Source: Ignavibacteria bacterium
GTDB taxonomy: Bacteria > Bacteroidota > Ignavibacteria > Kapaibacteriales > Kapaibacteriaceae
Assembly: GCA_016707005.1 (NCBI GenBank)
Contig: JADJIQ010000002.1
Coordinates: 741,527-805,526, forward strand
Reading direction: 5' to 3'
DNA length: 64,000 nucleotides
Shown: in pieces, positions 6,056 to 56,042 of the stretch
Position numbering within the stretch: position 1 is the first letter of the stretch
How the letters are laid out: every line of letters begins with the position of its first letter
The notes under the pieces: generated by a model
Database searches by the model: none
What the model was told of the DNA's origin: nothing
What the model saw: the letters and a program-made list of their open reading frames with translations, nothing else
Program-made: the position numbers and the translations under genes

Positions 6056-7423
6056 TTATCGGGTGAGATCGAGATAGAAAACAAAGGCCATGAGGATCAG
6101 CAAGAGTGCGATACCAACTTGCTGGAAGCGGATCTTCACGTTGGTAGAGATCTCTCTGCGGATCACGGCTTCGATACCAACAAAGACAAGGTGTCCGCCG
6201 TCAAGTCCCGGAAGCGGGAGGAGGTTCATCACACCAAGGGAGATCGAGATCAAGGCCATGAACCTGAGGAAGGCCTCGAGTCCAAGGTCAGAGCTGCGGG
6301 AGGCCATCTTTGCGATCTGGATCGGTCCGCCAAAACTCTGCTTCACAGATACAGTACCGCGGAAGACGTGTGTGACCGAGGTGCCGATCATCGCGATGGT
6401 GTTTCCCGTCTCACTCACGGCCATGGTCAATGATTCGAAGACGGCAAAAGTCTCGGTCTTGCGCGGACCAACGTAGGAACCTTCAAGCTGAACACCGATC
6501 GTCGAGTCCGATCCAACGGTAAGGTTCACCGGCATTGGCGTTCCGTTTCGCTCAACATGGAGCGTGATCGGCTTTGATGCATGGGCGCGTACATAGCGCT
6601 GGAACTGAGGGAGAGCACGCACGGGCATGGAGTCTACGGCCAGCACAACATCTCCGGCCTGCACTCCGGCACGTCCGGCAGGCGACAGAGTAACCACACC
6701 ACCGAACACGATCTTCATGTCCGAAGGGTACAGTCCCAAGCCCTGTCCGGCAGCCATCGAACGAACAAGGTCTGCACTTGCAAGCTCGATCGTCCGAGTA
6801 ACACCCTCGCGTTGTACAACCACCTTCCGCATACCGGTGTTGGTTGAGAGACCGAGTTGTTCGGCACAATCTTCCCAAGTAGACACTGCAACACCATCAA
6901 CGGATATCACCTTGTCGCCGGAAGCGAATCCAGATGCAGCAACGGTTGAGGTTGGGTCGACCCATGCGATCTTCGTTGTGGCCATTTCTTCGTGACCATA
7001 GAAGAGCGGCAAGAGCCAGAACACGACGATGGCCAACAAGAAATTCATGATCACGCCGGCACTGAGGACGATGGCCTTCTGCCAATTCTTCTTAGAACGG
7101 AACTCATAGGGTTCGGCCGGACGTCCCGCGAAGTCGGTATCCATGGACTCATCCACCATACCGAGGATCTTCACATATCCGCCGATCGGTAGGGCGCACA
7201 GTCGATAGTCCGTACCGCCGTCGAGCTCTAGGTCTGCGGGGAGTTTGCCAAACGAGAAGCCCGTCTTGGGATTCCATCCCATCACACGCGGACCCATCCC
7301 GATGGCGAAGACATCTGCGCGCATCCCCGTCCAACGAGCCGCAAGGAAGTGCCCAAGCTCGTGAATGAAGACGAGGACGCCGATGACGATGATAAAGGCA
7401 ATTGTTGGCTGTAGAAATTCCAT
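6056..7423 (-). CDS. rseP: RIP zinc metalloprotease RseP (site-2 protease)
   Basis: HELGHFLAARWTG zinc motif near N-terminus, PDZ region, C-terminal LDGG motif; start moved to internal ATG (MEFLQPTIAFIIV...) 6 nt downstream of dxr stop; longer ORF to 7549 would overlap dxr. Confidence 0.8.
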   Translation of the reverse strand: MEFLQPTIAFIIVIGVLVFIHELGHFLAARWTGMRADVFAIGMGPRVMGWNPKTGFSFGKLPADLELDGGTDYRLCALPIGGYVKILGMVDESMDTDFAGRPAEPYEFRSKKNWQKAIVLSAGVIMNFLLAIVVFWLLPLFYGHEEMATTKIAWVDPTSTVAASGFASGDKVISVDGVAVSTWEDCAEQLGLSTNTGMRKVVVQREGVTRTIELASADLVRSMAAGQGLGLYPSDMKIVFGGVVTLSPAGRAGVQAGDVVLAVDSMPVRALPQFQRYVRAHASKPITLHVERNGTPMPVNLTVGSDSTIGVQLEGSYVGPRKTETFAVFESLTMAVSETGNTIAMIGTSVTHVFRGTVSVKQSFGGPIQIAKMASRSSDLGLEAFLRFMALISISLGVMNLLPLPGLDGGHLVFVGIEAVIRREISTNVKIRFQQVGIALLLILMAFVFYLDLTR

Positions 7424-10205: not shown

Positions 10206-10343
10206 TAAAAAATACAGCCAAGTTGACCGTGGCGCCTTGTACGCATGCTGACCGTTGCTTCCTTCCGGACCTGGCGGGATTGGGCTTGGTACAATCGCAC
10301 GGGACTTGGCCGTGTTGTTCTCATTGCTTGAACCACAAATATA

Positions 10344-11734: not shown

Positions 11735-11744
11735 AACACACGAA

Positions 11745-11880
11745 GTTACGGAGTTACGGAGTTACGGAGTTACGCAGTTACAGAGTTACGGGGTTACAGG
11801 GTTACGGGGTTACTCTAGCACTCAAACACTCTAGCAATCTCATTAGCACATTAACACACTAGCACATTAGCACATTAACT
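11745..11880. repeat. composite tandem-repeat array: GTTACGGA x about 8 followed by degenerate TAGCACTC / ATTAGCAC units
   Basis: Direct reading: gttacggagttacggagttacggagttacgcagttacagagttacggggttacagggttacggggttact then ctagcactc...ctctagcaatctcattagcacattaacacactagcacattagcacattaact; begins 10 nt from tRNA 5' end. Confidence 0.75.
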
Positions 11881-14239: not shown

Positions 14240-15538
14240 ATGGACCTGAAACCCATTCTTGATGAATTGTTCGCGATGACGTTCCATGCCGGCATCAGAC
14301 CCGGCTTGGAGCGCATCACGGAGCTGTGCTCGCACCTTGATGAACCACATCTGCGCTATCCCGTCATCCACGTTGCCGGCACAAATGGCAAGGGCTCTAC
14401 CTGCTCCATGTTAGCCTCGATCCTCACCCACGCCGGGTACAAGGTTGGCCTCTACACCTCGCCGCACATCAGGCAGTTCAACGAACGTATTCGCATCAAC
14501 GGTACAATGATCTCCGATGAGGACGTGGCTCGTCTGGCTCGCCCCTTAATGGACCAGGCAAAGTCGTTCGGTGGAACGTTCTTTGAGGTCACCACAGCAA
14601 TGGCATTCCAATACTTTGCCGAGCGCAGAGTTGAGGTTGCGATCATTGAGACGGGGCTTGGCGGACGTTTTGATGCAACGAACATCGTACAGCCATTCCT
14701 GAGCATCATCACGCAGATCGATATCGACCACACGGAATACCTCGGCACAACACTTCCGCAGATCGCCGGCGAAAAGGCCGGGATCATCAAACAGGGGGCT
14801 CCTGTCGTGATCGGACATCGTTCCGGCATTGTGGTAAATGGACGGCCCGTTCCCGACATCCGAGATGTCTTCGTTCGTAAGGCAGAGTCCGCCAATACTC
14901 CGATCTCGTTCGCAGAAGACACGATCTATGTGGAAATGGATGCGATCCACCCCGACCTTACGATGACGGTGAGTGTTACGAATGACGCGGATCGCAAGTA
15001 CTACACAACCGACCTCTGTGGTCAGCATCAAACGAGCAACATCGCCACAGTGATCGCTGCCCTGCCGGCCATCAGTGAACTGTACTTCGTCGAAGAGCCA
15101 CACATACGAGAAGGACTGCTTCGCGTGAAGTCAACCTCTGGACTTTACGGACGATGCGACCTCATCAATGTAGATCCTTTCACAGTGATCGATGTATCGC
15201 ACAATCCCGGAGGCATTGCTGCCCTGCGAGACACGCTCATCGCCTCCGGCAAAACGCCGAACAGCATGCAGGTGGTCTTTGGTGCGATGTCCGATAAGGA
15301 CGTGGCTGGTATGATCGACGCCATCGCCCCGCTTGCACACACCCTACACCTATGCTCTCCTGCTCTCCCGCGCGCCCTTGCTGTGGAAGAGCTCCTCAAC
15401 CTGGCCCTGTCACGAGGCATCATGAACGCCGTAGCCCATTCGAGCGTGGCTCACGCCTACAAGGCAGCAATAGCTCATGGCCCAACCGTTGTGTGCGGGA
15501 GTTTCCATGTGATCGATGAAGTCATGCTAATGTGCTAA
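14240..15538 (+). CDS. folC: folylpolyglutamate synthase / dihydrofolate synthase
   Basis: P-loop VIHVAGTNGKGST, Mur-ligase family body; start moved to ATG at 14240 (MDLKPILDELF) right after terminator; last 4 codons and TAA stop lie inside ATGTGCTA repeat. Confidence 0.8.
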   Translation: MDLKPILDELFAMTFHAGIRPGLERITELCSHLDEPHLRYPVIHVAGTNGKGSTCSMLASILTHAGYKVGLYTSPHIRQFNERIRINGTMISDEDVARLARPLMDQAKSFGGTFFEVTTAMAFQYFAERRVEVAIIETGLGGRFDATNIVQPFLSIITQIDIDHTEYLGTTLPQIAGEKAGIIKQGAPVVIGHRSGIVVNGRPVPDIRDVFVRKAESANTPISFAEDTIYVEMDAIHPDLTMTVSVTNDADRKYYTTDLCGQHQTSNIATVIAALPAISELYFVEEPHIREGLLRVKSTSGLYGRCDLINVDPFTVIDVSHNPGGIAALRDTLIASGKTPNSMQVVFGAMSDKDVAGMIDAIAPLAHTLHLCSPALPRALAVEELLNLALSRGIMNAVAHSSVAHAYKAAIAHGPTVVCGSFHVIDEVMLMC

Positions 15539-15880
15539 TGTGCTAATGTGCTAATGTGCTAATGTGCTAATGTGCTAATGTGCTAATGTGCTAATGTGCT
15601 AATGTGCTAATGTGCTAATGTGCTAATGTGCTAATGTGCTAATGTGCTAATGTGCTAATGTGCTAATGTGCTAATGTGCTAATGTGCTAATGTGCTAATG
15701 TGCTAATGTGCTAATGTGCTAATGTGCTAATGTGCTAATGTGCTAATGTGCTAATGTGCTAATGTGCTAATGTGCTAATGTGCTAATGTGCTAATGTGCT
15801 AATGTGCTAATTTCGTGTATTAGCTCGTTAGCTAATTAGCACATTAGCACATTAGCACATTAGCACATTAGCACATTAAC
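15524..15880. repeat. foldback tandem array: ATGTGCTA x about 36 (15524-15810), 22-bp spacer, inverted ACATTAGC x 5 (15833-15880)
   Basis: Direct reading; right arm is exact reverse complement unit of left arm; array ends on the base before purH ATG. Confidence 0.9.
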
Positions 15881-25043: not shown

Positions 25044-26536
25044 GCCTCCCAACAACGATCGGCGAGCTGAAGGCAGCAGGATATCAATACGAGTCTGTGA
25101 AGGACGAGCTACGTCGCAACGTGATCGAACGACTGCGAACCAACACGCCCATCTTCTCCGGCATCATCGGATTCGATGACACCGTGATACCGCAGATCGT
25201 GAACGCCATTCTTGCAAAGCACGATATTCTCTTGCTCGGTCTACGCGGTCAGGCAAAGACGCGCATCGCACGTCAACTCACCACGCTACTCGACGAATTC
25301 ATCCCTGTTGTCAAGGGCTCCGAGATCAACGATCATCCGTTGCGCCCCGTGTCCTACCAGGCCGTGCAGCTCGTTGCCGAACACGGAGATGCTACACCGA
25401 TCGAATGGCGTCCGCGCGAGGAACGCTATGGCGAGAAGCTTGCAACTCCAGACGTTAGTGTGGCCGACCTCATCGGAGACATCGATCCGATCAAGGCTGC
25501 CTCGCAACGTCTGCATTATGCACATGAGGGCGCCATCCACTTTGGGATCATTCCGCGCTCCAACCGAGGCATCTTTGTCATCAACGAAGTACCCGATCTT
25601 CAGCCTCGCATTCAAGTAGCGTTGTTCAACATTCTACAAGAGCGCGATATTCAGATAAGGGGCTTTAATGTTCGCCTCCCGATGGACATCGTGATGGTGT
25701 TCACGGCCAACCCTGAAGACTACACCAATCGTGGATCCATCGTTACGCCACTTAAGGACCGCATTCAGTCGCAGATCCTCACGCACTATCCGCGCAGCAT
25801 CGAAGACGGCATGGCCATCACTGCACAAGAATCATGGGTTGAGCGCTCGGGAATGCCCCTTATCATCCCTACGTATCTCAGCCAGGTTGTTGAGTCCGTT
25901 GCCATGATCGCTCGCACGAGCGAATACATCGATCAAACCAGCGGCGTTAGTGCGCGACTCACCATCTCCACGATGGAGAACATGGTCTCCAATGCCGAAC
26001 GTCGCGCCTACATCACCGGCGAGATGATCGTAGCCCCCCGACTCTGCGACCTTGGTCAGGCACTTGCAGGCATCACCGGCAAGGTGGAACTCGTCTTTGA
26101 GGGCGAAGAAGAAGGACCGCAGAAGGTTGCACGAGCACTCATCGGCAAGGCCGTGCGCGAGGTCTTCCGTCTTTCCATGCCTGATCCGAATGTGCGCAGA
26201 GCTCGTAAGGGAACTGCTGAAGAGAAACCCGATCCCTATCAGGCCATCGTCCGGTGGTTCGAACAAGGTCACGTTGTGAACATCGATGACCGAATGACAA
26301 ACGAGGAATTCTACAACGCCCTCATCGCCGTCCCCACACTCGCTCAGCTCGCATCCGTCTCGTTCCATGTAGAGACGTCAGACACTATTCGTCTAGCAAC
26401 CGCTATGGAATTCATTCTGGATGCACTGCATCAACATTCCAAGCTTGCAAAAGACGACAACAGCATGCAGACCACGTACAGAGATCTGGTGGGAAGCATT
26501 TTTACGCCGCCTTTGTCGATGACAGAGGACGAATAG
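25040..26536 (+). CDS. AAA+ ATPase, Mg-chelatase/Lon-related N-domain-like (no protease domain)
   Basis: ATG overlaps ribE stop (ATGA); Walker A LLLGLRGQAKTRIARQL, Walker B GIFVINEVPDL, sensor region; architecture resembles N-terminal ATPase part of the Lon-related protein at 17425; stop TAG is first triplet of the TAGTTAC array. Confidence 0.5.
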   Translation: MSLPTTIGELKAAGYQYESVKDELRRNVIERLRTNTPIFSGIIGFDDTVIPQIVNAILAKHDILLLGLRGQAKTRIARQLTTLLDEFIPVVKGSEINDHPLRPVSYQAVQLVAEHGDATPIEWRPREERYGEKLATPDVSVADLIGDIDPIKAASQRLHYAHEGAIHFGIIPRSNRGIFVINEVPDLQPRIQVALFNILQERDIQIRGFNVRLPMDIVMVFTANPEDYTNRGSIVTPLKDRIQSQILTHYPRSIEDGMAITAQESWVERSGMPLIIPTYLSQVVESVAMIARTSEYIDQTSGVSARLTISTMENMVSNAERRAYITGEMIVAPRLCDLGQALAGITGKVELVFEGEEEGPQKVARALIGKAVREVFRLSMPDPNVRRARKGTAEEKPDPYQAIVRWFEQGHVVNIDDRMTNEEFYNALIAVPTLAQLASVSFHVETSDTIRLATAMEFILDALHQHSKLAKDDNSMQTTYRDLVGSIFTPPLSMTEDE

Positions 26537-26627
26537 TTACTAGTTACTGGTTACTAGTTACTAGTTACTGGTTACTGGTTACTAGTTACTAGTTACTGGT
26601 TACTAGTTACTGGTTACTATTTACTAG
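26534..26627. repeat. tandem array TAGTTAC / TGGTTAC x about 13 (left arm of 4HB cassette 1)
   Basis: Direct reading tagttactagttactggttactagttac... Confidence 0.85.
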
Positions 26628-26691
26628 GTCTGGCGAAGGAGAAGTTTATTGAGGCGTGTCACGTACTGACGTGTTGAGAGCACGTAGCAGG

Positions 26692-27090
26692 ATGGGTCAT
26701 GAACGAGATATCATAAAAGAGCGACTTGTCGCTAGTCCACTGCACATCCTTTCAATCGAGTTTTCTCGAGAGGTGCGCAGTCTTGTACGGAAGGCATTCC
26801 AACATCAGGTTGTTGAGCGAATGCCACTTGATCAACTGTATCGTTCGGGGTCCTCGGTTGGAGCGAATATCCGTGAGAGCAGATATGCAGAATCTCCAAA
26901 GGACTTTGTACATAAGCTCAAGATCGCGGAGAAAGAGCTGGGTGAATTCTTCTATTGGATTGGATTGCTGTCGTCGAAACACGACATTTTTGATGAAGAC
27001 GCTGCCGCTGCCTGCGTCAACAAAGGCACACAAGTCCAAAAGCTACTTTCTTCGATCATTGTAACAACGAAACGCAACAACAGTTTGTAA
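26692..27090 (+). CDS. four-helix-bundle protein (TIGR02436 / 23S rRNA intervening-sequence protein family)
   Basis: Family core ...VVERMPLDQLYRSGSSVGANIRESRYAESPKDFVHKLKIAEKELGEFFYWIGLL; first ATG at 26692 (ORF-track start 26656 is GTG). Confidence 0.65.
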   Translation: MGHERDIIKERLVASPLHILSIEFSREVRSLVRKAFQHQVVERMPLDQLYRSGSSVGANIRESRYAESPKDFVHKLKIAEKELGEFFYWIGLLSSKHDIFDEDAAAACVNKGTQVQKLLSSIIVTTKRNNSL

Positions 27091-27123
27091 TCTCTTACGA
27101 ATTGCAATTCAACGAGGTATGGT

Positions 27124-27152
27124 GTAACTAGTAACTAGAAACTAGTAACTAG
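27124..27152. repeat. inverted array GTAACTA x 4 (right arm of 4HB cassette 1)
   Basis: gtaactagtaactagaaactagtaactag = reverse complement of left-arm unit; ends 2 nt before stop codon of convergent peptidase gene. Confidence 0.85.
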
Positions 27153-32255: not shown

Positions 32256-32389
32256 GCTTTTTAAGCGCCTTTGTAAGCGCCTTCTTCAAGCGCCTTTGTA
32301 AGCGCCTTTGTAAGCGCCTTCTTCAAGCGCCTTTGTAAGCGCCTTTGTAAGCGCCTTTGTAAGCGCCTTCTTCAAGCGCCTTTGTAAGC
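32256..32389. repeat. tandem array of 12/13-bp units AAGCGCCTTTGT / AAGCGCCTTCTTC x about 10 (left arm of 4HB cassette 2)
   Basis: Direct reading. Confidence 0.85.
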
Positions 32390-32440
32390 TGAGTCACGTT
32401 TAAGGGTTGTGAGAGTACGAAGAGGTTTTAGGGGAACCCT

Positions 32441-32899
32441 ATGTCTCTTCTTCAACTCCGCATGTATAAACGGGCCGGCGAGATCTCTGATGAGGTTGCT
32501 CTGTTTGCAAGTGCATGGCCGCACATCCATCGGAACACGATCGGAGATCAGATCATTAGAGCGGCGGATTCGATCTCAAACAACATTGCTGAAGGGTATG
32601 GCAGAACAGCAACAGGAGAACGCATCCAGTTTCTGATGTATGCCGATGGCTCGATCTCAGAAACAAGAAACTGTCTACATAGAGCATTCGGCCGGAACCT
32701 CATCGACGCAGACACCAACGCTCGACTTCAACAGCGCCTCGTATCATTGTCGATTAGTATCGTAGAGTTCGCACATGCTATAATTGAAAGAGACCCATCA
32801 TACAAGGGTCCATTCCGCGAACGAATCGCAAAACGCCGCGCCTGGCTTGTGAAGAAGCTCGCCAAGAACGGCGCAGCTCCCCCAAACGAACAATCTTAA
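32441..32899 (+). CDS. four-helix-bundle protein (TIGR02436 / 23S rRNA intervening-sequence protein family)
   Basis: Canonical family motif ...IIRAADSISNNIAEGYGRTATGERIQFLMYADGSISETRNCLHRAF...; ATG start; 152 aa. Confidence 0.8.
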   Translation: MSLLQLRMYKRAGEISDEVALFASAWPHIHRNTIGDQIIRAADSISNNIAEGYGRTATGERIQFLMYADGSISETRNCLHRAFGRNLIDADTNARLQQRLVSLSISIVEFAHAIIERDPSYKGPFRERIAKRRAWLVKKLAKNGAAPPNEQS

Positions 32900-33160
32900 A
32901 GAAGGCGCTTGCAGAAGGCGCTTGCAGAAGGCGCTTGAATAAGGCGCTTGAATAAGGCGCTTGAACAATGCGCTTGAACAAGGCGCTTGAACAAGGCGCT
33001 TGAACAAGGCGCTTGAACAAGGCGCTTGAACAAGGCGCTTGAACAAGGCGCTTAACGAAGGCGCTTAGAGAAGGCGCTTGAACAAGGCGCTTAGAGAAGG
33101 CGCTTGAACAAGGCGCTTGAACAAGGCGCTTAACGAAGGCGCTTGCAGAAGGCGCTTACA
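32900..33160. repeat. inverted tandem array of 13-bp units (A/G)AAGGCGCTTGAAC and variants x about 20 (right arm of 4HB cassette 2)
   Basis: Reverse complement GTTCAAGCGCCTT matches left-arm unit family; last unit overlaps the pcrA stop codon (cttaca). Confidence 0.85.
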
Positions 33161-47808: not shown

Positions 47809-48593
47809 TGCGCCTCGCTACCGTACAGTTCTGTCCCGCGTACAGAGATCCGGATGCCAATACCGACTTCATTGTGGAGACCATTGCCAGTACTGAAGCG
47901 GACGTCATCGTCTTTCCCGAACTCGCCACCAGCGGATATTTCTTTGTCACCCGCGAAGAAGTAGGGGGCATTGCAGAGCCCCTTACCGGACCTCATATCA
48001 CCCGCATCATCAACGCTGCAAAAACTCACGGTCGCATAGTGATCTGCGGTTTTGCTGAGCGTGATGGAGACCGTCTCTTCAACTCAGCGGTGATTGCCGG
48101 ACCGAACATCGAAACACAGGTCTATCGCAAAACGCATCTGTTCTACAAGGAGACGCTGTGTTTTGACGAGGGCGATAGCGGTTTCTCCGTTGTTCATCTA
48201 CCCCATCTCGATTGCAATCTCGGCGTGATGATCTGCTACGACTGGCGTTTTCCTGAAAGTGCCCGGACCCTTGCACTCAAGGGAGCTGACGTGATCGCCT
48301 GCCCATCAAACCTCGTCACCCACATCTGGCGCATGGCCATGCCCGTACGCGCCCTCGAGAACAAGGTCTACCTGGCAGTGGCCAACCGCTACGGCACAGA
48401 ATCCAACACCGAAGAAGACGTCACCTTCAACGGCCAAAGCGTGATCTACTCCTACAACGGAGACGTACTGGCAAGCGCCGATGCAGTTGGCACAACCACA
48501 CTCATCACCGAGATCGACCCCACCGCCACCCGCAACAAGACATTCAATTCTGTTAATGACATCCTTGCCGATCGCCGCCCAGAGAGATACTAG
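47805..48593 (+). CDS. carbon-nitrogen hydrolase (nitrilase superfamily)
   Basis: Glu in FPELATSGY, Lys, Cys in ICYDWRFPE; ATGA overlap with PAP2 gene; stop TAG is first triplet of the downstream repeat. Confidence 0.8.
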   Translation: MMRLATVQFCPAYRDPDANTDFIVETIASTEADVIVFPELATSGYFFVTREEVGGIAEPLTGPHITRIINAAKTHGRIVICGFAERDGDRLFNSAVIAGPNIETQVYRKTHLFYKETLCFDEGDSGFSVVHLPHLDCNLGVMICYDWRFPESARTLALKGADVIACPSNLVTHIWRMAMPVRALENKVYLAVANRYGTESNTEEDVTFNGQSVIYSYNGDVLASADAVGTTTLITEIDPTATRNKTFNSVNDILADRRPERY

Positions 48594-48717
48594 TTACTGG
48601 TTACTAGTTACTGGTTACTAGTTACTTGTAACTGGTAACTGGTAACTACTAACTAGTAACTAGTAACTAGTAACTGGCAACTAGTAACTAGTACTTAGTA
48701 ACTAGTAACTTGCAACT
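48591..48717. repeat. foldback tandem array: TAGTTAC/TGGTTAC x 5 then inverted TNGTAAC x about 13, no cargo
   Basis: Direct reading; centre at about 48626; ends on base before murC ATG; same unit family as array at 26534. Confidence 0.9.
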
Positions 48718-50085
48718 ATGACGTTTTCCTCCGTTCGACACATCCACTTCGTTGGCATTGGTGGCATTGGCATGAGCGGGATCGCCGAGATCCTTCTTTC
48801 GCAGGGGTTTGTTGTCAGTGGCTCAGACCTTAACCGAAGTGAAGTAACGGACCACCTTGCAACTCTTGGGGCGCGCATCTGCATTGGGCATGATGCACAA
48901 CACGTAGATAACGCCGAGGTAGTGGTCTACTCCAGTGCCGTTCGTCCACAGGAGAACCCCGAGACGTTGTTCGCCTTGGAGCGCAAGATCCCGATCATCC
49001 GTCGGGCAGAGATGCTCAGCGAGGTCTCCCGACTGAAGTATTGTCTGGCCATTGCCGGCACTCACGGCAAGACAACCACCACGTCCATGTGTGGCATCGT
49101 GATGATGAAGGCTGGCATGGACCCAACGGTCATTGTTGGCGGACGTCTCAAGGGACTTGGTGGCACGAATGCCCGGCTTGGACAGGGCGACTGGATCGTA
49201 CTCGAGGCCGATGAATACGACCGTTCCTTCCTCCAGCTCTTGCCCACCATTGCTGTGATCACGAATGTAGAGGCGGATCACCTTGACATCTATAGTGACC
49301 TCGACGATATAAAGGGGGCGTTCATCGAGTTCTCAAACAAGGTGCCGTTCTATGGCACTGCAGTGGTCTGCTTAGATGATCCGGGCGTGCGCGCCATCCT
49401 GCCGTCCATCAAACGGGTGGTTGTCACCTACGGCATGTCTGCGCAGTGTGATGTGCGCGCTGCAGACATCAGCTACAACGAACGCTCCTCCACCTATACA
49501 CTCGTACACAAGGGGAGCCCCCTTGGAGAGATCGAGCTTCACGTACCGGGTGACCACAACGTCCGCAATTCCCTTGCTGCTTGCGCAACTGCTCTTTTGT
49601 GCGGTGTTCCGTTCGATGTGATCAGGGATGGTCTTGCAGAGTTCGGAGGCGTGTTCCGTCGGTTCGAAGTCAAGGGAGAGGTAGGGGGCATCCTGGTCGT
49701 AGACGACTATGCCCACCACCCTACCGAGATCCGCTCAACGCTCACCGCGGCCCGACGTGGTTGGAAGCGTCGGATCGTTGCCGTGTTCCAGCCGCACACC
49801 TATACCCGAACCAGGGATTTCTACGCCGAGTTCGCCACTTCCTTTGACGAGGCCGATGTTTTGATCCTCACAGACGTTTATCCGGCACGCGAAGAGCCAA
49901 TTCCGGGGGTCAATGGGAAGCTTATCGCGGACGCTGCCAGGGATGCCGGACACCGCAACGTGCACTATGTAGAAGCGCCTGCAGACATCCCGGCACTGCT
50001 CAAGACCCTGGTTTTGGAGGGCGATATGGTGCTCACAATGGGTGCCGGAGATATATGGAAAGTAGGGTCGGCACTGCTCGCCTGA
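48718..50085 (+). CDS. murC: UDP-N-acetylmuramate--L-alanine ligase
   Basis: HFVGIGGIGMSGIAEIL and Mur ligase motifs. Confidence 0.9.
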   Translation: MTFSSVRHIHFVGIGGIGMSGIAEILLSQGFVVSGSDLNRSEVTDHLATLGARICIGHDAQHVDNAEVVVYSSAVRPQENPETLFALERKIPIIRRAEMLSEVSRLKYCLAIAGTHGKTTTTSMCGIVMMKAGMDPTVIVGGRLKGLGGTNARLGQGDWIVLEADEYDRSFLQLLPTIAVITNVEADHLDIYSDLDDIKGAFIEFSNKVPFYGTAVVCLDDPGVRAILPSIKRVVVTYGMSAQCDVRAADISYNERSSTYTLVHKGSPLGEIELHVPGDHNVRNSLAACATALLCGVPFDVIRDGLAEFGGVFRRFEVKGEVGGILVVDDYAHHPTEIRSTLTAARRGWKRRIVAVFQPHTYTRTRDFYAEFATSFDEADVLILTDVYPAREEPIPGVNGKLIADAARDAGHRNVHYVEAPADIPALLKTLVLEGDMVLTMGAGDIWKVGSALLA

Positions 50086-50149: not shown

Positions 50150-52288
50150 ATGACGATCTCCGCCATGACGACGAATTCTCGTGTTCTCTCGATCGCTCTC
50201 GGTCTTGTGTGCATCGCTTCTATCGCGTCAGCCCAGAAAAGCAAAAAGTCGGCAACACCGGCAAAAACGTCAACCCCTTCCACCGTGATCGCCACGGTTG
50301 GAACAGAGAAGATCCTTCTCTCCGACGTTGAGCGCGCATTTCAAAAAAACTTGTCGCGTCGGGATACGAAGCTTACTTCAGTGCCACGAGACACCGCCCT
50401 TGAATTCCTGCGCCTCTACACGAACTATCGATTGAAGGTGCAGGACGCACACGATCGTGGTCTCGACAAGGACTCCGCAGTGAAGGTAGACCTTGCGAAC
50501 AATCGCAAGCTCCTTTCAGAGACGTTCTTCTATGACAAGGCAGTAGCTGACTCGCGAGTGGATCAGCTGTCACGTCGTAGAATGAAGGAGCTCCAGATCG
50601 GCATCATCTTGTGCGCGATCGCCGATCCGCAGACCAAACAATGGGATACGGTTGGAAGCAAGCTCAAGGCAGAACGTCTTATCGCACAACTCAACGCCGG
50701 TGCTGACTTCGAGAAGATCGCTCGTGATTCATCGGACGATAAGGAGACCGCTGCGAACGGAGGGATCCTTCCGTGGATCTCCGGCGGTTCGATCATCAAG
50801 GCCGTAGAAGACGAAGCATATTCTTTGAAGGCTGGGCAAGTGAGCCCGAAGCCCGTGAACTCGCGTTTCGGATACTTCGTGGTGAAGGTCTTCCGTGAGG
50901 AGCCCCGTGACCAAGTGAAGTTCCGTCACATCCTTCTTTCCGCAAAAGATGGCAGAGACTCAGCCGCAACAGATCGTTTTGCAGACACGCTCATCACCAT
51001 CCTCAAGATGAAGCCGGCTCAACAAGCAGCTGCATTGCGTGCGATGAAGATCGAGCCAACGGGCGATGCCTTTTCTGACCTGGCAAAGGCCGTGTCGGAC
51101 GACAAGACGTCCGCTGCCAAGGGCGGCTTCCTCGGCTCATCATATTCCCGCTCCGGCGGAATGGATGCCAATGGTTCCCGTCTTGTACCGGCCTTTGAGA
51201 ACGCGGTGTTTGCACTCAAGGATGGCGAGCTCTCCGGCAAGGTCAAGACGATCTACGGAACACACATCATGATCCGTGATTCCACCAAGAAGCCTGATGC
51301 TGTGGCGGAGCGCGACGCGGCAAAGCGCACCTATCGCAGACTTTACTTCGAAGAAGACAAGAGGATCGTTCTCGATTCTGTGAAGAAGCACCTTGGATAT
51401 CAGTGGATGGATCAAACATTGATCATGTTTATGAGTGCGATCGATACCACGAAGAACACACAAGACACAACGTGGTCACGCTCACTCACACCGTATCAAT
51501 CAGAACAGATCATCTACAAGATGCCACGCGGCCCGATCACAGTAGGCCAATTCCGCGACTCACTTCGCCTGCGCATCGATATGCGAGGATACTCGCTCAA
51601 CCGTGCCGGGCTTGAGCGTGCAATGAATCGCATCGCAGACCCACTTGCCCTAGAGCAGGCCACTGCAGACCTCGAAACGAAGTATCCGGAGTTTGCCTCG
51701 TTGATGCAAGAATTCAATGACGGCATCTTGCTCTTCAAGGTAGAAGAGAAGGAAGTCTGGAGCAAGCTACGATTTGACACTACCGATGCGCGGGTCTTCT
51801 ATGACTCAACCAAGTCGCGTTGGATGACCGAGCAGAAGTACGACCTCACCGAGCTCTACGTACTCAGCGACTCCCTTGCAAAGGCCTTGAGCGATAGAAT
51901 CAAGAAGGGCGAGAACATTGCCACACTTGCCGCACAACACACGCAACGCGAAGGTGGCAGGGATAAGAACGGCGCTGTGAAGTCGGCATCACCTAAGACC
52001 TCAAAGGTTGCAGCGAAGATCACTGCCACAACAAAGGTTGGGGACATCATCGGTCCGTTTGCAGCCGACGCCGGTTGGGCGGTCATCCGCCTTGATGCCG
52101 TTGTTCCGCCACAACAGAAGTCCTTTGAAGCAGCACTCAGTGAGCTCGCTCCGGCCTATCAGGATGCGCTGCAGAAGCGTCTCACCGAGAACTGGCTCTC
52201 CGGTGTGCGCAAGCTTCACCCTGTTGTGTATGACACCGCTGTTATCGACAAGATATGGGGCAAGGCCTCGTCAGTGAAAACGAAATGA
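50150..52288 (+). CDS. periplasmic peptidyl-prolyl isomerase, SurA/PpiD-like with several parvulin domains
   Basis: Signal peptide; repeated parvulin cores (FGYFVVKV, YGTHIMIRD, ...). Confidence 0.7.
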   Translation: MTISAMTTNSRVLSIALGLVCIASIASAQKSKKSATPAKTSTPSTVIATVGTEKILLSDVERAFQKNLSRRDTKLTSVPRDTALEFLRLYTNYRLKVQDAHDRGLDKDSAVKVDLANNRKLLSETFFYDKAVADSRVDQLSRRRMKELQIGIILCAIADPQTKQWDTVGSKLKAERLIAQLNAGADFEKIARDSSDDKETAANGGILPWISGGSIIKAVEDEAYSLKAGQVSPKPVNSRFGYFVVKVFREEPRDQVKFRHILLSAKDGRDSAATDRFADTLITILKMKPAQQAAALRAMKIEPTGDAFSDLAKAVSDDKTSAAKGGFLGSSYSRSGGMDANGSRLVPAFENAVFALKDGELSGKVKTIYGTHIMIRDSTKKPDAVAERDAAKRTYRRLYFEEDKRIVLDSVKKHLGYQWMDQTLIMFMSAIDTTKNTQDTTWSRSLTPYQSEQIIYKMPRGPITVGQFRDSLRLRIDMRGYSLNRAGLERAMNRIADPLALEQATADLETKYPEFASLMQEFNDGILLFKVEEKEVWSKLRFDTTDARVFYDSTKSRWMTEQKYDLTELYVLSDSLAKALSDRIKKGENIATLAAQHTQREGGRDKNGAVKSASPKTSKVAAKITATTKVGDIIGPFAADAGWAVIRLDAVVPPQQKSFEAALSELAPAYQDALQKRLTENWLSGVRKLHPVVYDTAVIDKIWGKASSVKTK

Positions 52289-53577
52289 AAAGCCCCATGC
52301 GCACACTCAACATCTTCTTCATGTGCCTCCTTGTACTTGGCATCCCTACCTCTGTTTGGGCCCAAGACTCCATGGAAGGTATCATTGCCATCGTTGGTCG
52401 TGAGATCGTTCTCAAGTCCGATGTAGACGGTCAGATGGAGATGTTGGCCCAGCGTGATCCGCGCGTAGACCGCAAGGACGTCAAACTGCGTCAAGCAATC
52501 CTCGATCAGCTCATCAACGAGCGCCTCATCATGACCAAGGCCATAGAGGACAGCATTGAGGTAACAGATGAAGAGATCACGCAGCGCATGGAATATCAGA
52601 TCCAAACACTGATCCAGCAATTCGGCTCAGAGAAGCGTATCGAAGACATGTACGGCATGAGCATGATGCGCATCCGACGTGAATTCCGCGATGAGATCCG
52701 CAAACGTCTTCTCGTGGAGAAGATGCAACAGAAGCAATTCGGTCAGGTCAAGGCCTCCCGTGCAGATGTGGAAGCGTTCTACGCCAAATACCGCGACTCC
52801 TTGCCTAAGGTACCGGAACGTGTAGACCTCTTCCACATCGTGAAGTACGTGAAGGCCTCCGACGAAAAGAACAAGGAAGCATACACCCTTGCCATGCGTA
52901 TCAGAGACTCCATCGTAAAAGGGGGCTCCTTCAGCGACTTCGCACGCAGGTATTCCGGAGATCCGATCTCTGCATCGAACGGTGGCGACCTCGGAACCGT
53001 TGATCGCGGCAAATTTGTCCCGGCTTTCGAAACCGCTGCATTCAACCTGTCCCCTGATGAGATCTCTCAACCAGTCGAGACGCCGTTCGGATGGCACGTT
53101 ATTCAGCTCATCAGCAAGACAGCAACCTCGATGACTGCGCGACACATCCTCATTCGCGTAGGTCAGAGCGACGAAGACCGAGAACGCGTTAAGACCGAAC
53201 TCGTTGCACTCAAACAACGTGTTGAAAAGGGCGAGAACTTTGAGACACTCGCTCGTGAATTCAGTGATGAAAAAGAGACCCAAGGCTTCGGTGGATCAAT
53301 GGGTCAGATCGAACTCGCCCGTCTTCCGGAAGAGATGCAAACATCTCTCAATGCCATGAAGGACGGTGCTGTCTCCGACCCTTCACCGTATGCCGCAGAC
53401 CCAACTAAGCCCGGCTTCCACATCCTCTACCGCAAGCGCATCATCCCTGCTCACACCCCGTCCGTCGACGAAGACTACAAACAACTCGAACAAATGGCAT
53501 CCTTCGAAAAGAAGCAACGCCTCGAACAAGAGTGGGTGCAGAAGCTGCGGAAAGAGTTGTATTGGGAAACGCGTTAG
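52285..53577 (+). CDS. surA: SurA-type chaperone / peptidyl-prolyl isomerase
   Basis: Signal peptide MKSPMRTLNIFFMCLLVLGIPTSVWAQ; SurA N-domain plus two parvulin domains (FGWHVIQLI, GFHILYRK); ATGA overlap; stop TAG is in the repeat. Confidence 0.75.
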   Translation: MKSPMRTLNIFFMCLLVLGIPTSVWAQDSMEGIIAIVGREIVLKSDVDGQMEMLAQRDPRVDRKDVKLRQAILDQLINERLIMTKAIEDSIEVTDEEITQRMEYQIQTLIQQFGSEKRIEDMYGMSMMRIRREFRDEIRKRLLVEKMQQKQFGQVKASRADVEAFYAKYRDSLPKVPERVDLFHIVKYVKASDEKNKEAYTLAMRIRDSIVKGGSFSDFARRYSGDPISASNGGDLGTVDRGKFVPAFETAAFNLSPDEISQPVETPFGWHVIQLISKTATSMTARHILIRVGQSDEDRERVKTELVALKQRVEKGENFETLAREFSDEKETQGFGGSMGQIELARLPEEMQTSLNAMKDGAVSDPSPYAADPTKPGFHILYRKRIIPAHTPSVDEDYKQLEQMASFEKKQRLEQEWVQKLRKELYWETR

Positions 53578-53618
53578 AGTGCTAGAGTGCTAGATTGTTA
53601 GAGTGCTAGATTGTTAGA
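53573..53618. repeat. tandem array of units TAGAGTGCTAGATTGT x about 3 (arm of 4HB cassette 3)
   Basis: gttagagtgctagagtgctagattgttagagtgctagattgttag. Confidence 0.85.
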
Positions 53619-53621
53619 CCC

Positions 53622-53990
53622 TCATCTGGTTTTTGGGGGTCGTTGTTGATTGCGAACTGCGGTAGATATAGACGAACTCATCAGCCGTCCAAGCTCATCA
53701 AGAAGACCATCGATCGTTTGTTTCCATGAGCTTGGCACTCCATTTCTTTCGGTGAAATGGATAGAGAGAGATTCGGCTTCTCGTAACTCCTTATGAGCAA
53801 GCTTCAGTTTGTGTATGAGGTCTCGCCGACTTTGGCAGCTCTGCGCTTCAGAGATGTTATTCATGACAGCTAGGGCGACACCCTCCGTCTGATTTCCAAG
53901 ACGAAACAGATGTTGACTGTTTACGATCCTCACAACTTCTAACAGATAGATCGATAACAGACGCGATTTTATCATTGATGGGGACGTCAT
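53622..53990 (-). CDS. four-helix-bundle protein (TIGR02436-like, divergent)
   Basis: ...NSQHLFRLGNQTEGVALAVMNNISEAQSCQSRRDLIHKLKLAHKELREAESL aligns with the NIAEG...F..L.IA.GS..E motif region of the other two copies; track start 54032 is a GTG inside the repeat, first ATG at 53990. Confidence 0.55.
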   Translation of the reverse strand: MTSPSMIKSRLLSIYLLEVVRIVNSQHLFRLGNQTEGVALAVMNNISEAQSCQSRRDLIHKLKLAHKELREAESLSIHFTERNGVPSSWKQTIDGLLDELGRLMSSSISTAVRNQQRPPKTR

Positions 53991-54024
53991 CCTTCTATGT
54001 GCTACTAACACCACAGAACGTGAC

Positions 54025-54068
54025 TCTAGCACTCTAACAATCTAGCACTCTAACAATCTAGCACTCTA
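54025..54068. repeat. inverted array CTCTAGCACTCTAACAAT x about 2.5 (other arm of 4HB cassette 3)
   Basis: Exact reverse complement of 53573 array unit; ends 6 nt before stop of OMP gene. Confidence 0.85.
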
Positions 54069-54074
54069 TCGAGA

Positions 54075-56042
54075 TTACCAACTTCGAGAAACAGTGAGAC
54101 GCACAATGCTCTCCTGATACCCTCCACCCAACACCGGTGGTGTGAGGCGTTCGTTGAAGAGGGTGCGTTCTGCACGGAGGTCTACGTCTGCGAAGTTGCC
54201 GAGGCGGGCGGTAACGCCGAGGAAGAAGCCGGTGCGGTCTCCGTAGGTGTCATCAAGTGCAAGGGTGAGTCCACCACTGGCGGTGAGGATGTCGGAGAGG
54301 ATGTACGAAGCGGAGCCATCGATGGTGATGATAGTTGTGCTTGGAGATGCCACTGCTTCTTGATGGATCCATCCGATGCCGGCTGTGAGCGAGAGAGGGA
54401 TGAGCAACGTGACGGATTGACTGGCGATCACGGATGTGACGGCATAATCATAGAGGTTGTTCTTTGTTGCCGCGTCCTGTCGAGCAAAGGTAACGTTGGT
54501 GCTAGCACTGAGATCGCCGATGCGATATGCATAGCCCCCTGACGCATTCCACATGGTCGTACGATTCACGTATTGGAGAAGAGTGTCGGTTGCGTCACTT
54601 TGTTGAACGTACGGTGAGTACGAAACGCGGAGATATGGCAGTCCGCGGAAGTTGAGACCAAGTGTTGCGCCGATAGAGAGCAAGGTAGAAGTAGAACGCT
54701 TGATCGGAATGAGATTGTCGCGATCCTGCCGGGCAAAGAGTCCGATCGACATTTGGCGTTTCAGAAGTGCCTGATCCACTTTTACATCAAAACGCAGTAC
54801 GTCCACACGGAGGTTTGGGACTCCCAGCGCTCGATATCCGGCACCGATGCGGCGGATACTGCCACTAAACCGTGTGCCACTGCTTCGAATGTTCACGGCA
54901 GTACTTGCAGTTGCAGACCAATCAACATACGATGAAGCATTGGAGTCTGCTACATTCAAGAGGAAGTCAGGAACACTCGTTGTTCCAAACTGAGGTGCAT
55001 TAAGATCTCCGATGGTAAGGGAGCCCCCTACTTCACCTTCAAATGACCATATACCCGGGATGAGTTCTACACGGAAATCGATCGTTGAGAGGATGTTTTT
55101 TTGAGGCGTAAGAGCTGAGAGAGTATCAACCACGGTAAGGCTGGCCTTATCATCAATGGTATAGACTCCAGTGATTGTTACGTGGTCTGCCGTGATGGAA
55201 CCAAGGCCAATACGACCACCATAGAGTTTGCGTCCAAAGTCAGAGTTGTCAGAGGTGCGATAGATGGTTGTATCTGTGCGTGTAGAATCAATGCGCGAGA
55301 GGGGGCGTTGTGTTGTTCCATACACTGCATGCAGATAGAACGCACCGCCGGGGTTCCATTCGAGATTCCCACCAACAATACGCGCTCCGCTGAGGGTAAG
55401 TGGCGTGAACGTTGGGAAGACCGTGCCCACACCGATCTTTGGGAGCGAGGCCATCACACTCTCAACATCACTCATAACACCGATCTTGGTGAGCACATCT
55501 TCGTAGTTGGTGATGTTGCCGTTCGAGACATCGCGCAACTGTTCTACTTGTCGCATGGCCTCAAGTTGTTCGAGCTGTTCAGGATCATATTGCTTAAGAG
55601 AGTCTTTCACACTCTCGTACTCTCCCAGCATCCATCCGGCCTCAGACATCGCATAGGACTCGAGTTCGCGATACGCACGCTGCGTAACAATGCGCTTTAC
55701 GGCATCAGGATCAAGTGAAACAGAAAAGGCATTGATGTTCTGACGAATATCTTGCTGTTCAGAACTCATCAAGAGATTTGCCGTGATGGGCACGCCGTAG
55801 ATGATGGCCGATGGTGTGAATTCAACACGCCAGAAGTCAGGGGGCTTCTCCTGAAACGATCCCGACCTATTCGACGTTTGACCAAGCACACGATACCCGC
55901 CGGTGAAGATCACGGGCGCATCACCTTGGTCGGAACCAAAGACAACAAATGGTGATCCTGTTTGTGGTGCAGGCTGTGCTGTTGCGATCACCGATGCAAC
56001 TGCTAGTGTCACCAACACGATCAGGTTACTCGCACGTATCAT
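54075..56042 (-). CDS. hypothetical outer-membrane beta-barrel protein (655 aa)
   Basis: Signal peptide MIRASNLIVLVTLAVASVIATAQ; long amphipathic beta-strand rich body; 4-nt overlap with RCC1 gene. Confidence 0.5.
   Translation of the reverse strand: MIRASNLIVLVTLAVASVIATAQPAPQTGSPFVVFGSDQGDAPVIFTGGYRVLGQTSNRSGSFQEKPPDFWRVEFTPSAIIYGVPITANLLMSSEQQDIRQNINAFSVSLDPDAVKRIVTQRAYRELESYAMSEAGWMLGEYESVKDSLKQYDPEQLEQLEAMRQVEQLRDVSNGNITNYEDVLTKIGVMSDVESVMASLPKIGVGTVFPTFTPLTLSGARIVGGNLEWNPGGAFYLHAVYGTTQRPLSRIDSTRTDTTIYRTSDNSDFGRKLYGGRIGLGSITADHVTITGVYTIDDKASLTVVDTLSALTPQKNILSTIDFRVELIPGIWSFEGEVGGSLTIGDLNAPQFGTTSVPDFLLNVADSNASSYVDWSATASTAVNIRSSGTRFSGSIRRIGAGYRALGVPNLRVDVLRFDVKVDQALLKRQMSIGLFARQDRDNLIPIKRSTSTLLSIGATLGLNFRGLPYLRVSYSPYVQQSDATDTLLQYVNRTTMWNASGGYAYRIGDLSASTNVTFARQDAATKNNLYDYAVTSVIASQSVTLLIPLSLTAGIGWIHQEAVASPSTTIITIDGSASYILSDILTASGGLTLALDDTYGDRTGFFLGVTARLGNFADVDLRAERTLFNERLTPPVLGGGYQESIVRLTVSRSW

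Follow-up and report, generated by a model that had tools for sequence, protein, structure and literature searches.

A putative gene cassette resembling ribosomal RNA intervening sequences, carried in the loop of a tandem-repeat hairpin between two protein-coding genes of an Ignavibacteria bacterium

The 64,000-nucleotide stretch of an Ignavibacteria bacterium genome analysed here (GenBank assembly GCA_016707005.1, contig JADJIQ010000002.1, positions 741,527 to 805,526; hereafter referred to as the window) contains a ~0.5-kb insert of 496 nt, at 53573–54068, which lies exactly between the stop codons of two convergent genes and which we call cassette C. It features a gene for a four-helix-bundle (4HB) protein, enclosed by two tandem-repeat arms that are inverted copies of each other. 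With moderate confidence, we interpret cassette C as a gene cassette that resembles the intervening sequences (IVSs) of 23S rRNA but resides outside ribosomal RNA, occupies the loop of a stop-rich tandem-repeat hairpin, and is exchanged and flipped by way of its arms. As judged by sequence comparison, it behaves as a movable gene cassette, with the same site being empty, flipped, decayed or differently filled in relatives. The element and its two host genes are composed as follows:

52255–53577, plus strand, SurA-like host gene encoding a 440-aa periplasmic chaperone/peptidyl-prolyl isomerase (PPIase); Pfam matches Rotamase, Rotamase_3 and SurA_N_3
53573–53618, no strand, left arm; tandem array of 8-nt sub-units TAGAGTGC/TAGATTGT (plus strand), 16-nt unit, 2.8 copies
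53622–53990, minus strand, 4HB cargo gene (PF05635/TIGR02436); 122 aa from the first ATG, TGA stop 3 nt from the left arm
53991–54024, minus strand, leader separating the right arm from the start codon; box 1, GTCACGT, at 54024–54018, 34 nt before the ATG; box 2, GCACATAG, at 54002–53995
54023–54068, no strand, right arm; 2.8 copies of a 16-nt unit built from ACTCTAGC/ACAATCTA, reverse-complementary to the left arm
54069–54074, no strand, spacer TCGAGA; 6 nt, linking the right arm to the convergent gene's stop
54075–56042, minus strand, convergent host gene; 655 aa, uncharacterised, TAA stop 6 nt past the right arm

The arm repeat can be written as (TAGAGTGCTAGATTGT)n. Tandem Repeats Finder resolved the two arms at period 8 (5.5 and 5.8 copies) as well as at period 16 (2.8 copies each, with 92% and 100% matches). 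A sequence-only reading of this DNA had proposed about three units on each side and a unit of 16–19 bp; the copy number and the 16-nt unit were borne out, whereas a 19-nt unit found no support. The core of the stem is perfect, with the 36 nt of 53583–53618 being 100% complementary to 54033–54068 across an interval of 414 nt, and a wider pairing of the arms extends over 57 nt with 79% complementarity. Stop codons are present in all six frames of the left arm, as counted frame by frame, and the same is true of the arrays in general. A 526-nt transcript of cassette C was predicted to fold with a free energy of -182 kcal/mol, as compared with -138 ± 6 kcal/mol for shuffled sequences (z = -7.05). 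The G+C content of cassette C (45–47%) was 6–12 points lower than that of its flanks (52–59%). Four independent assemblies of the same species contained an identical cassette C, in the same orientation and with the same copy number; thus, it is not an assembly artefact.

Both boundaries of the insert are tight. The TAG stop codon of the SurA-like gene (53575–53577) is the first triplet of the first unit of the left arm, and the right arm, which ends at 54068, is separated by 6 nt from the end of the convergent open reading frame (ORF) at 54075, both as the sequence-only reading had described. The SurA-like proteins of relatives end with the same last residue, but their genes have a TAA stop where the site is empty. 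Orthologues of the convergent 655-aa protein likewise finish with the same tryptophan followed by the stop. This protein had no match in Pfam, NCBIfam or PDB, leaving its earlier label as an outer-membrane protein unconfirmed; a signal-peptide-like N-terminus and the conserved C-terminal tryptophan suggest such a nature. Both neighbours of cassette C are protein-coding, as assessed from ORFs, Pfam and Rfam, and cassette C is not located within an rRNA gene. An Rfam search of the window returned just a tRNA and the signal recognition particle (SRP) RNA, with no known RNA family at cassette C.

The longest minus-strand ORF of the cassette (53622–54032) starts with a GTG inside the right arm and has its first ATG at 53990, coordinates that agree with the sequence-only reading; the start assigned by NCBI is the next ATG, at 53975, which gives 117 aa. 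The 4HB identity proposed there also held, with the protein scoring above the curated thresholds of both Pfam PF05635 (E=3.8e-11, 43.6 bits, gathering score 33.8) and TIGR02436 (E=3.8e-12, 46.4 bits, cut-off 24). It matched PDB entry 2RLD with E=3.2e-5 as a single sequence and 6e-22 as a profile. An AlphaFold2 model built on a 39-sequence alignment (pLDDT 96.3) has four helices, at residues 4–25, 29–50, 55–76 and 87–115. The top Foldseek matches of this model were 2RLD (BT_0352, ‘S23 ribosomal protein family’; TM score 0.77 by query and 0.86 by target) and 2GSC (Xcc0516; 0.79 and 0.82), each a PDB entry with five chains, followed by Avd (4DWL/8UB7). The protein is basic, with an isoelectric point (pI) of 10.1. 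We found no further domain in it using Pfam, NCBIfam and PADLOC. A word-index homology search retrieved its own 90% cluster alone, and an exhaustive HMMER search retrieved 55 representatives at E<=1e-3, the closest having 50% identity. Three long proteins each matched the 4HB query at several separate places, P0071 (2663 aa) at 12, P0101 (523 aa) at 5 and P0104 (1230 aa) at 6; they may be tandem-4HB-domain proteins or mis-called repeat regions.

We collected orthologous SurA loci from 25 Ignavibacteria/Kapaibacterium-type genomes, and each locus was then examined for its convergent gene and for 4HB genes. Three sites (L009, L017 and L023) were empty, as the sequence-only reading had envisaged: the SurA gene ended with TAA at the same codon, and the convergent stop followed 13, 0 and 5 nt later, respectively, with no repeats. 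A relic was found in L018, which has 2.9 units of TAGTGTGC and no cargo, while its close relative L167, a contig whose SurA C-terminus is the same, contains a complete cassette whose arms are made of TAGTGTGC. In L012, the cargo was replaced with a different minus-strand 4HB gene, whose product is 48% identical to the cassette A protein (see below) and whose arms consist of TGATTAC/GTCATCA heptamers. In L001, whose SurA is 93% identical to that of the window, the cassette was inverted: its 4HB protein is 92.5% identical and the arms had not moved, but the interior, from GTCACGT to the stop codon, was precisely flipped. Inverted arms were kept not only in L001 but also in L166, where they have TAGTGTGC units as in L167. 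We also considered the arms as an amplified target sequence, which found no support here; the spacers of the empty sites are unlike the arm unit.

More distant homologues extend this picture. P0067 (50% identity) and P0068 (37%), the two nearest ones with a visible upstream gene, again lie directly after the end of a SurA gene, and P0069 (42%) has 10-nt arms, TAGTGTGGCR, beside a different gene. Each cargo lineage has its own arm unit, namely TAGAGTGC in cassette C, TAGTGTGC in L166 and L167, and TAGTGTGGCR in L168 at another site; on this sequence evidence, the arms travel with the cargo lineage. The contig of L002, a 93%-identical relative, terminates inside an array after SurA (7325–7364), which means that such arrays break short-read assemblies, a point of warning to those who use them. 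Within 7325–7364 of L002, the units change from TAGAGTGC to TAATGTGC, the latter being the unit of the window array at 15525 (see below), and arrays thus appear to exchange units.

The cargo and the host genes of this site have different histories. Between the window and L001, synonymous divergence (dS, Nei-Gojobori) was 0.26 for the 4HB gene, as opposed to 1.53 for SurA and 1.42 for the convergent gene. By these values, the common ancestor of the two cassettes is much younger than that of the host genes around them. The ratio of nonsynonymous to synonymous divergence (dN/dS) of the 4HB gene was 0.18, indicating that the protein is under purifying selection. Nucleotide identity was 90–93% in the interior and ~80% in the flanks, but rose to 0.87–0.93 in the ~150 nt beside each arm. 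This rise suggests replacement by homologous recombination, not precise transposition.

The leader preceding the start codon was conserved beyond the arms and proteins themselves. GTCACGT was present 34–48 nt before the ATG in all nine Ignavibacteria-type cassettes examined, despite their differing arms and proteins, and a tenth leader (L166) has the variant GTCACAT. Several leaders also contain a second box, GCACRTAG, ~22 nt downstream of GTCACGT. In the window as a whole, GTCACGT was not enriched (15 occurrences found and 12 expected), so that the signal lies in the placement of the word rather than in its frequency. The 4HB gene is antisense to both of its neighbours in L008 and L012 and is flipped in L001; a cassette arranged in these ways must therefore be capable of independent expression. 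We infer that the leader is a candidate promoter or operator of the cassette. As for transcript ends, the search for intrinsic terminators in or near cassette C gave a single terminator-like site, which is at the level of chance.

The window contains two further cassettes of the same layout:

26534–27152, plus strand, sister cassette A; arms TAGTTAC/TGGTTAC (13 copies) and GTAACTA (4 copies) around a 4HB ORF at 26692–27090; between convergent genes
32257–33157, plus strand, sister cassette B; 12/13-nt arms, CTTTGTAAGCGC... and AAGGCGCTTGAAC (20 copies), around a 4HB ORF at 32441–32899; between convergent genes

The proteins of cassettes A and B both pass the Pfam and TIGRFAM 4HB models, and the three 4HB proteins of the window have pI values of 9.1–10.1. 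Their sequences are very divergent, as the sequence-only reading had estimated by eye: in BLASTP comparisons, the C and A proteins shared 48% identity over only 31 aa, and the C/B and A/B pairs gave no significant alignment; MAFFT alignment gave 33% and 21% identity of the other two to the cassette C protein. The proteins and the arm units (8-mers, 7-mers and 12/13-mers) are too unrelated for a recent local duplication, in accordance with the same reading. Its conclusion that the cassettes are independent is supported, but not in the sense of recent arrivals, since 4HB proteins of 37–50% identity occupy the same SurA 3′ end elsewhere. Cassette C had also been singled out for its ‘opposite orientation’. 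Its 4HB gene is indeed on the minus strand, but the strand means nothing in particular: each of the three cassettes has convergent neighbours, and a close relative has the cassette C interior turned around. Next to cassette B, the stop codon of a UvrD-like gene falls inside the last arm unit, and the final codons of this gene together with its TAA (GCTTTGTAA) constitute one copy of CTTTGTAAGCGC; either the arm of cassette B overwrote the end of the gene or the unit derives from the gene end.

To assess how general inverted arms are around 4HB genes, we scanned metagenomes using the pair of cassette A and L012 proteins as a seed, a six-sequence 4HB alignment being too divergent for this use. 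The 80 loci returned (L080–L159) are accordingly biased to an A-like subfamily. We compared the 300 nt upstream with the 300 nt downstream of each gene by an inverted-repeat score with a threshold of 14. Among 62 distinct metagenomic cassettes with enough flank, 38 had inverted arms (score >=14), as compared with none of 146 mock sites of the same geometry, although the score is a crude one; a direct-repeat score >=14 was obtained for only 11 of the 62. The arm periods were 7, 8, 9, 14 or 16 nt. The arms adjoin codons of the neighbouring genes in the combinations (stop, start) in 15, (stop, stop) in 14 and (start, stop) in 1 of the cases, and the 4HB gene is mostly co-oriented with the upstream gene. 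The 8-mer arms have a consensus, TRATGWGN, across unrelated contigs (A3 97%, T4 94% and G7 90%, values that are somewhat inflated by fitting the register to a reference). In this consensus, a stop and a start overlap (TAATG/TGATG) and a single codon comes next, in many cases with a further stop behind it (ATG-TGA, ATG-TGC-TAA). An array of 8-nt units is hence a series of mini-ORFs, each overlapping the next, that leads from the host stop toward the 4HB start, which may hint at translational coupling; the heptamer arms have no ATG.

The same layout was found in isolates, namely Zunongwangia endophytica (between two CoA-transferase subunit genes) and Halpernia sp. (der/upp), and plasmid pNPUN01 of Nostoc punctiforme has a 4HB gene flanked by inverted GGGTGTR heptamers. 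A further culturable carrier is Flavobacterium columnare, where the site lies between gmk and nadD. The cassette layout is thus general across Ignavibacteria, Flavobacteriia and a Nostoc plasmid. Within the annotated 4HB gene of pNPUN01 (L171, 1466–1640), there is a second hairpin array of GGGTGTR units and their inverted counterparts with a loop of ~90 nt, past which a plausible original C-terminal helix resumes in frame. This 4HB gene appears, from its sequence, to have been split by a second, cargo-less hairpin array, and arrays may therefore be able to insert alone, even into a 4HB gene.

Arrays without cargo are also present in the window:

15525–15878, no strand, cargo-less hairpin array; TGCTAATG, 36 perfect copies, then a 7-nt spacer, then inverted CATTAGCA, 7.5 copies; in the folC–purH gap
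48589–48718, no strand, cargo-less palindromic heptamer array of the cassette A unit family; from the stop of a nitrilase-like gene to the ATG of murC
11740–11877, no strand, composite one-orientation array; ACGGAGTT (9 copies), ACTCTAGC (3.6 copies) and CATTAGCA (4.6 copies); adjoining tRNA-Arg(TCT)

All arrays of the window start within or at a gene's stop codon and read in the sense direction of the gene concerned. The folC-like ORF runs 13 nt into the array at 15525–15878 and stops on a TAA of the array, and the ATG of purH follows 2 nt past it; a cargo-less near-palindrome of this length suggests a very recent expansion. In L002, the orthologue of the 48589–48718 array (2290–2466) has a 49-nt loop between its arms, with a small palindrome around GTGCAC inside. 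The composite array at 11740–11877 sits between a small minus-strand ORF and tRNA-Arg(TCT), and two of its unit types recur elsewhere in the window, which suggests that units are shuffled between loci; one of them is ACTCTAGC, the unit of the right arm of cassette C, at 11812–11840. The 13.3-kb L012 locus has ten short-period arrays and one 4HB gene, cargo-less arrays outnumbering loaded ones there as elsewhere, and includes an inverted pair of GAGTTACG (11 copies) and TCCGTACC (37 copies) with a loop of ~66 nt. No short-period arrays were found in loci L004–L006, L009, L020 and L022–L024. The array load is strongly lineage-specific.

The closest counterpart of cassette C is the ORF-bearing IVS of 23S rRNA, as known from Leptospira, Coxiella burnetii and Brucella, the kind of element in which the S23p/PF05635 family was first seen and whose interior likewise holds a gene for such a protein. 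In Coxiella, the IVS comprises 428–444 nt with an S23p ORF and a terminal stem of 28 bp; RNase III excises it, and lateral acquisition has been suggested (PMC4990558). Cassette C belongs to the same size class (496 nt) and likewise has its ORF in the loop of a terminal complementary stem (36 bp). Both elements have a sporadic distribution, a G+C content below that of the host and evidence of lateral transfer (PMC4990558). Unlike an IVS, cassette C lies between the stop codons of two protein-coding genes rather than in an rRNA helix, its stem is built of tandem 8-nt repeats of variable copy number, and its ORF is under purifying selection, whereas the Coxiella ORF has been reported as decaying; excision by RNase III, in turn, is a prediction by analogy for cassette C. 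By this analogy, cassette C may be read as an IVS-like selfish or commensal cassette. A looser likeness is to the Correia elements of Neisseria, which have terminal inverted repeats and form an mRNA hairpin that is cut by RNase III. Like cassette C, they are short intergenic inserts with terminal inverted repeats, no transposase and variable presence between strains; they differ by a conserved terminus, a TA duplication and the lack of a gene, whereas the cassette arms vary, no duplication is evident and a gene is enclosed.

Our proposal for how such a cassette would work is as follows. The leader, with GTCACGT at -34 and GCACRTAG near -15, would supply the cassette with its own promoter or operator, so that it would work in either orientation. 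Transcripts crossing from either host gene would fold the arms into a duplex of at least 36 bp, and RNase III would cut this duplex as it does the 28-bp Coxiella stem; the cut would part the cassette RNA from the host mRNA and limit convergent read-through. Insertion would be harmless to the host reading frames because the arms hold stops in all frames. The arms would also be the recombinogenic part of the element: slippage would alter their copy number, recombination between the inverted arms would flip the cargo, and, after DNA uptake, recombination via the arms or the flanks would replace, delete or spread it. The outcomes, namely inversion, cargo loss and exchange, are seen among the relatives; recombination through the arms is the process that we infer from them. 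More speculatively, the basic and probably pentameric 4HB protein might bind its own arm repeats as DNA or RNA.

Several observations weigh against this interpretation. On the RNA side, RNAalifold predicted no pairs in the ten leaders, which makes the leader conserved at the sequence level only, and there was no sigma-70 consensus promoter in or near cassette C. The 123 arm mismatches in the 38 cassettes comprised 32 G-U pairs in the sense strand, 32 in the antisense strand (A-C on the sense strand) and 59 others; the equality of G-U and A-C mismatches gives no sign that complementarity is kept at the RNA level over the DNA level. On the DNA side, we found no recombinase, transposase, target-site duplication or conserved terminal sequence for cassette C. 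The cassettes do not have the appearance of miniature inverted-repeat transposable elements or other transposons, with the arms of the three window cassettes sharing no unit sequence or period and the comparison of empty and filled sites showing no duplication. Since the four same-species assemblies are identical, flipping and slippage must be slow at this locus, and C-type cassettes at the SurA 3′ end with 37–50% protein identity fit a long vertical residence equally well. The layout is not invariable either: 24 of the 62 metagenomic cassettes and a Pseudanabaena plasmid copy of the 4HB gene had no clear or obvious arms, respectively. Lastly, a signature motif GxxRxxxSxxxNxxE has been reported for the family (PMC3936711), which is a conservation pattern and not a formal criterion. 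In HMMER alignment with 2RLD, the cassette C protein has G and A at the R and S of this motif and retains the N and E, whereas the cassette A and B proteins retain the full R...S...N..E.

An alternative that we rate as unlikely, but still appreciable, is modelled on the repetitive extragenic palindromic (REP)/REPIN elements and their RAYT genes, reportedly described by Nunvar in 2010 and by Bertels and Rainey in 2011. RAYTs are relatives of HUH/Y1 transposases. In analogy, each 4HB paralogue would be a trans-acting factor that makes, maintains or spreads its cognate repeat hairpins, the cargo-less arrays being its non-autonomous products; as the master copy, the gene would be flanked by repeats of its own kind. 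The likeness consists of a gene flanked by cognate inverted repeats and of dispersed copies of these repeats that lack cargo, form hairpins and lie at gene 3′ ends or in the gaps of convergent gene pairs. Unit families with and without cargo do coexist in one genome (TAGTTAC in cassette A and at 48589–48718, and ACTCTAGC in cassette C and at 11812–11840), and the numerical excess of cargo-less over loaded arrays in L012 and elsewhere fits as well. Related 4HB proteins have related units even at another site, but co-inheritance explains this correlation equally well. The TRATGWGN consensus common to unrelated contigs, the array apparently inserted within the Nostoc 4HB gene, and the basic, Avd-like character of the protein are further points in its favour. 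However, the cassette C protein, a helical bundle of 120 aa, has no known catalytic residues and is not an HUH/Y1 enzyme, neither PADLOC nor Foldseek pointed to a nuclease or transposase fold, the repeats form tandem arrays rather than the single palindromes of REP, and the TGCTAATG arrays have no cognate 4HB gene within the 64-kb window.

An extended form of this idea, which we put forward as an improbable conjecture, is that PF05635 proteins, including the rRNA-IVS ORF and the relatives of Avd, bind short tandem repeats in a sequence-specific manner and produce, preserve or mobilise palindromic arrays of such repeats. The intergenic heptamer/octamer arrays (STRR, TAACTGA) of Cyanobacteria, Bacteroidota, Ignavibacteria and Beggiatoaceae would then be their dispersed products, in an analogue of the REP/RAYT system on a non-enzymatic fold.

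Such arrays could, on the other hand, be generic products of slippage at stop codons, with the 4HB gene being an ordinary old resident that is immobile and has no functional link to them; two convergent genes that had each acquired an array would give the semblance of an inverted pair. We consider this improbable too. The cyanobacterial STRR heptamers are intergenic short tandem repeats. Intergenic TAACTGA arrays have been described in Beggiatoaceae, Cyanobacteria and Bacteroidetes as direct arrays and possible translational regulators (MacGregor 2015; PMC4679880). The cassette arms are like both in having intergenic, stop-containing units of 7–8 nt in up to tens of copies, in adjoining start or stop codons, in varying by whole-unit steps between strains and in being missing from the orthologous spacer of close relatives; the GGGTGTR heptamers flanking the Nostoc 4HB gene provide a link with STRR. 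The start of each window array at or in a stop codon in gene-sense orientation, the frequency of arrays without a 4HB gene, the occurrence of C-type genes at the same SurA site over deep divergence and the stability of the locus within the species are all consistent with passive residence. Cassette C differs from the arrays of PMC4679880 in its paired inverted arrays and enclosed 4HB gene, neither of which is mentioned there. Moreover, both arms of a cassette always have the same unit out of the many possible, and arms also flank 4HB genes between co-directional genes. The contrast between 38 of 62 cassettes and no mock site, the five to six times lower dS of the 4HB gene relative to its flanks, the different cargo at the L012 site and the clean empty sites in three relatives all argue against an immobile gene.

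The precise inversion of the interior between the window and L001, with unchanged arms that are long enough to be recombination sites, would also be expected of an inverton, a phase-variable switch in which site-specific inversion between the arms would turn on or off either the expression of the 4HB gene or read-through to the adjacent genes. We regard this as very improbable: a single orientation was found in all four same-species assemblies, the inversion was seen only against L001, for which the flanking dS is ~1.5, and there is no invertase within 3–5 kb. The arms differ in sequence and period between cassettes and hence share no recombinase site, and expression should not depend on orientation because the promoter-like leader flips with the gene.

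Hardly credible, finally, is an orphan or remnant of a diversity-generating retroelement (DGR) with the 4HB protein as its Avd. The fold, the superfamily and the basic character are indeed shared with Avd (4DWL and 8UB7 in the Foldseek comparison, TM 0.72 by query and 0.79 by target; PMC10053308), but sequence identity is just 14–18%, the genes to either side, over ~3.4 kb and ~4.8 kb respectively, encode PPIases, an uncharacterised secreted protein and an RCC1-repeat protein with no reverse transcriptase, no template/variable repeat pair or long direct repeat pair was seen near cassette C, and the layout of a solitary 4HB gene between housekeeping genes recurs dozens of times.

Returning to the IVS-like interpretation, what appears to be new here is an IVS-like element outside rRNA with tandem-repeat arms, a cassette that we did not find described. 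A full-text search returned no paper on PF05635/S23p genes with flanking tandem-repeat arms, although many subscription journals were outside its reach and this is no proof of absence. The article on the TAACTGA arrays (PMC4679880) does not mention the PF05635 family, and 23S_rRNA_IVP genes have been reported inside cas loci with no mention of repeats around them (PMC3936711). As regards membership in a defence system, PADLOC detected none of the three 4HB proteins of the window.

Three loose ends may thereby belong to one phenomenon: the function of the IVS ORF, which in some 23S rRNA IVSs is said to have ‘no known function’ (PMC4990558), the intergenic paralogues annotated as ‘four helix bundle protein’, and the 7–8-nt intergenic tandem repeats of Cyanobacteria, Bacteroidota and sulfur bacteria. 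The sequence itself displays the connection: a gene lies in the loop of a hairpin made of such repeats, and this unit can be acquired or lost, inverted or swapped without displacing the host genes. If the protein does bind its own repeats, this would add a new family of nucleic-acid-binding proteins specific for repeats and related to the accessory protein of DGRs. Culturable hosts with such cassettes, namely Zunongwangia, Flavobacterium and Nostoc, are open to experiment.

Beyond the cassette and its host genes, a gene for a 712-aa PPIC-type PPIase (50150–52288) overlaps the SurA-like gene (52255–53577), also of PPIC type, by 34 nt. On the other side, the convergent gene is immediately followed by one for a 941-aa RCC1-repeat protein, and the SRP RNA is located at 10213–10311 of the window.

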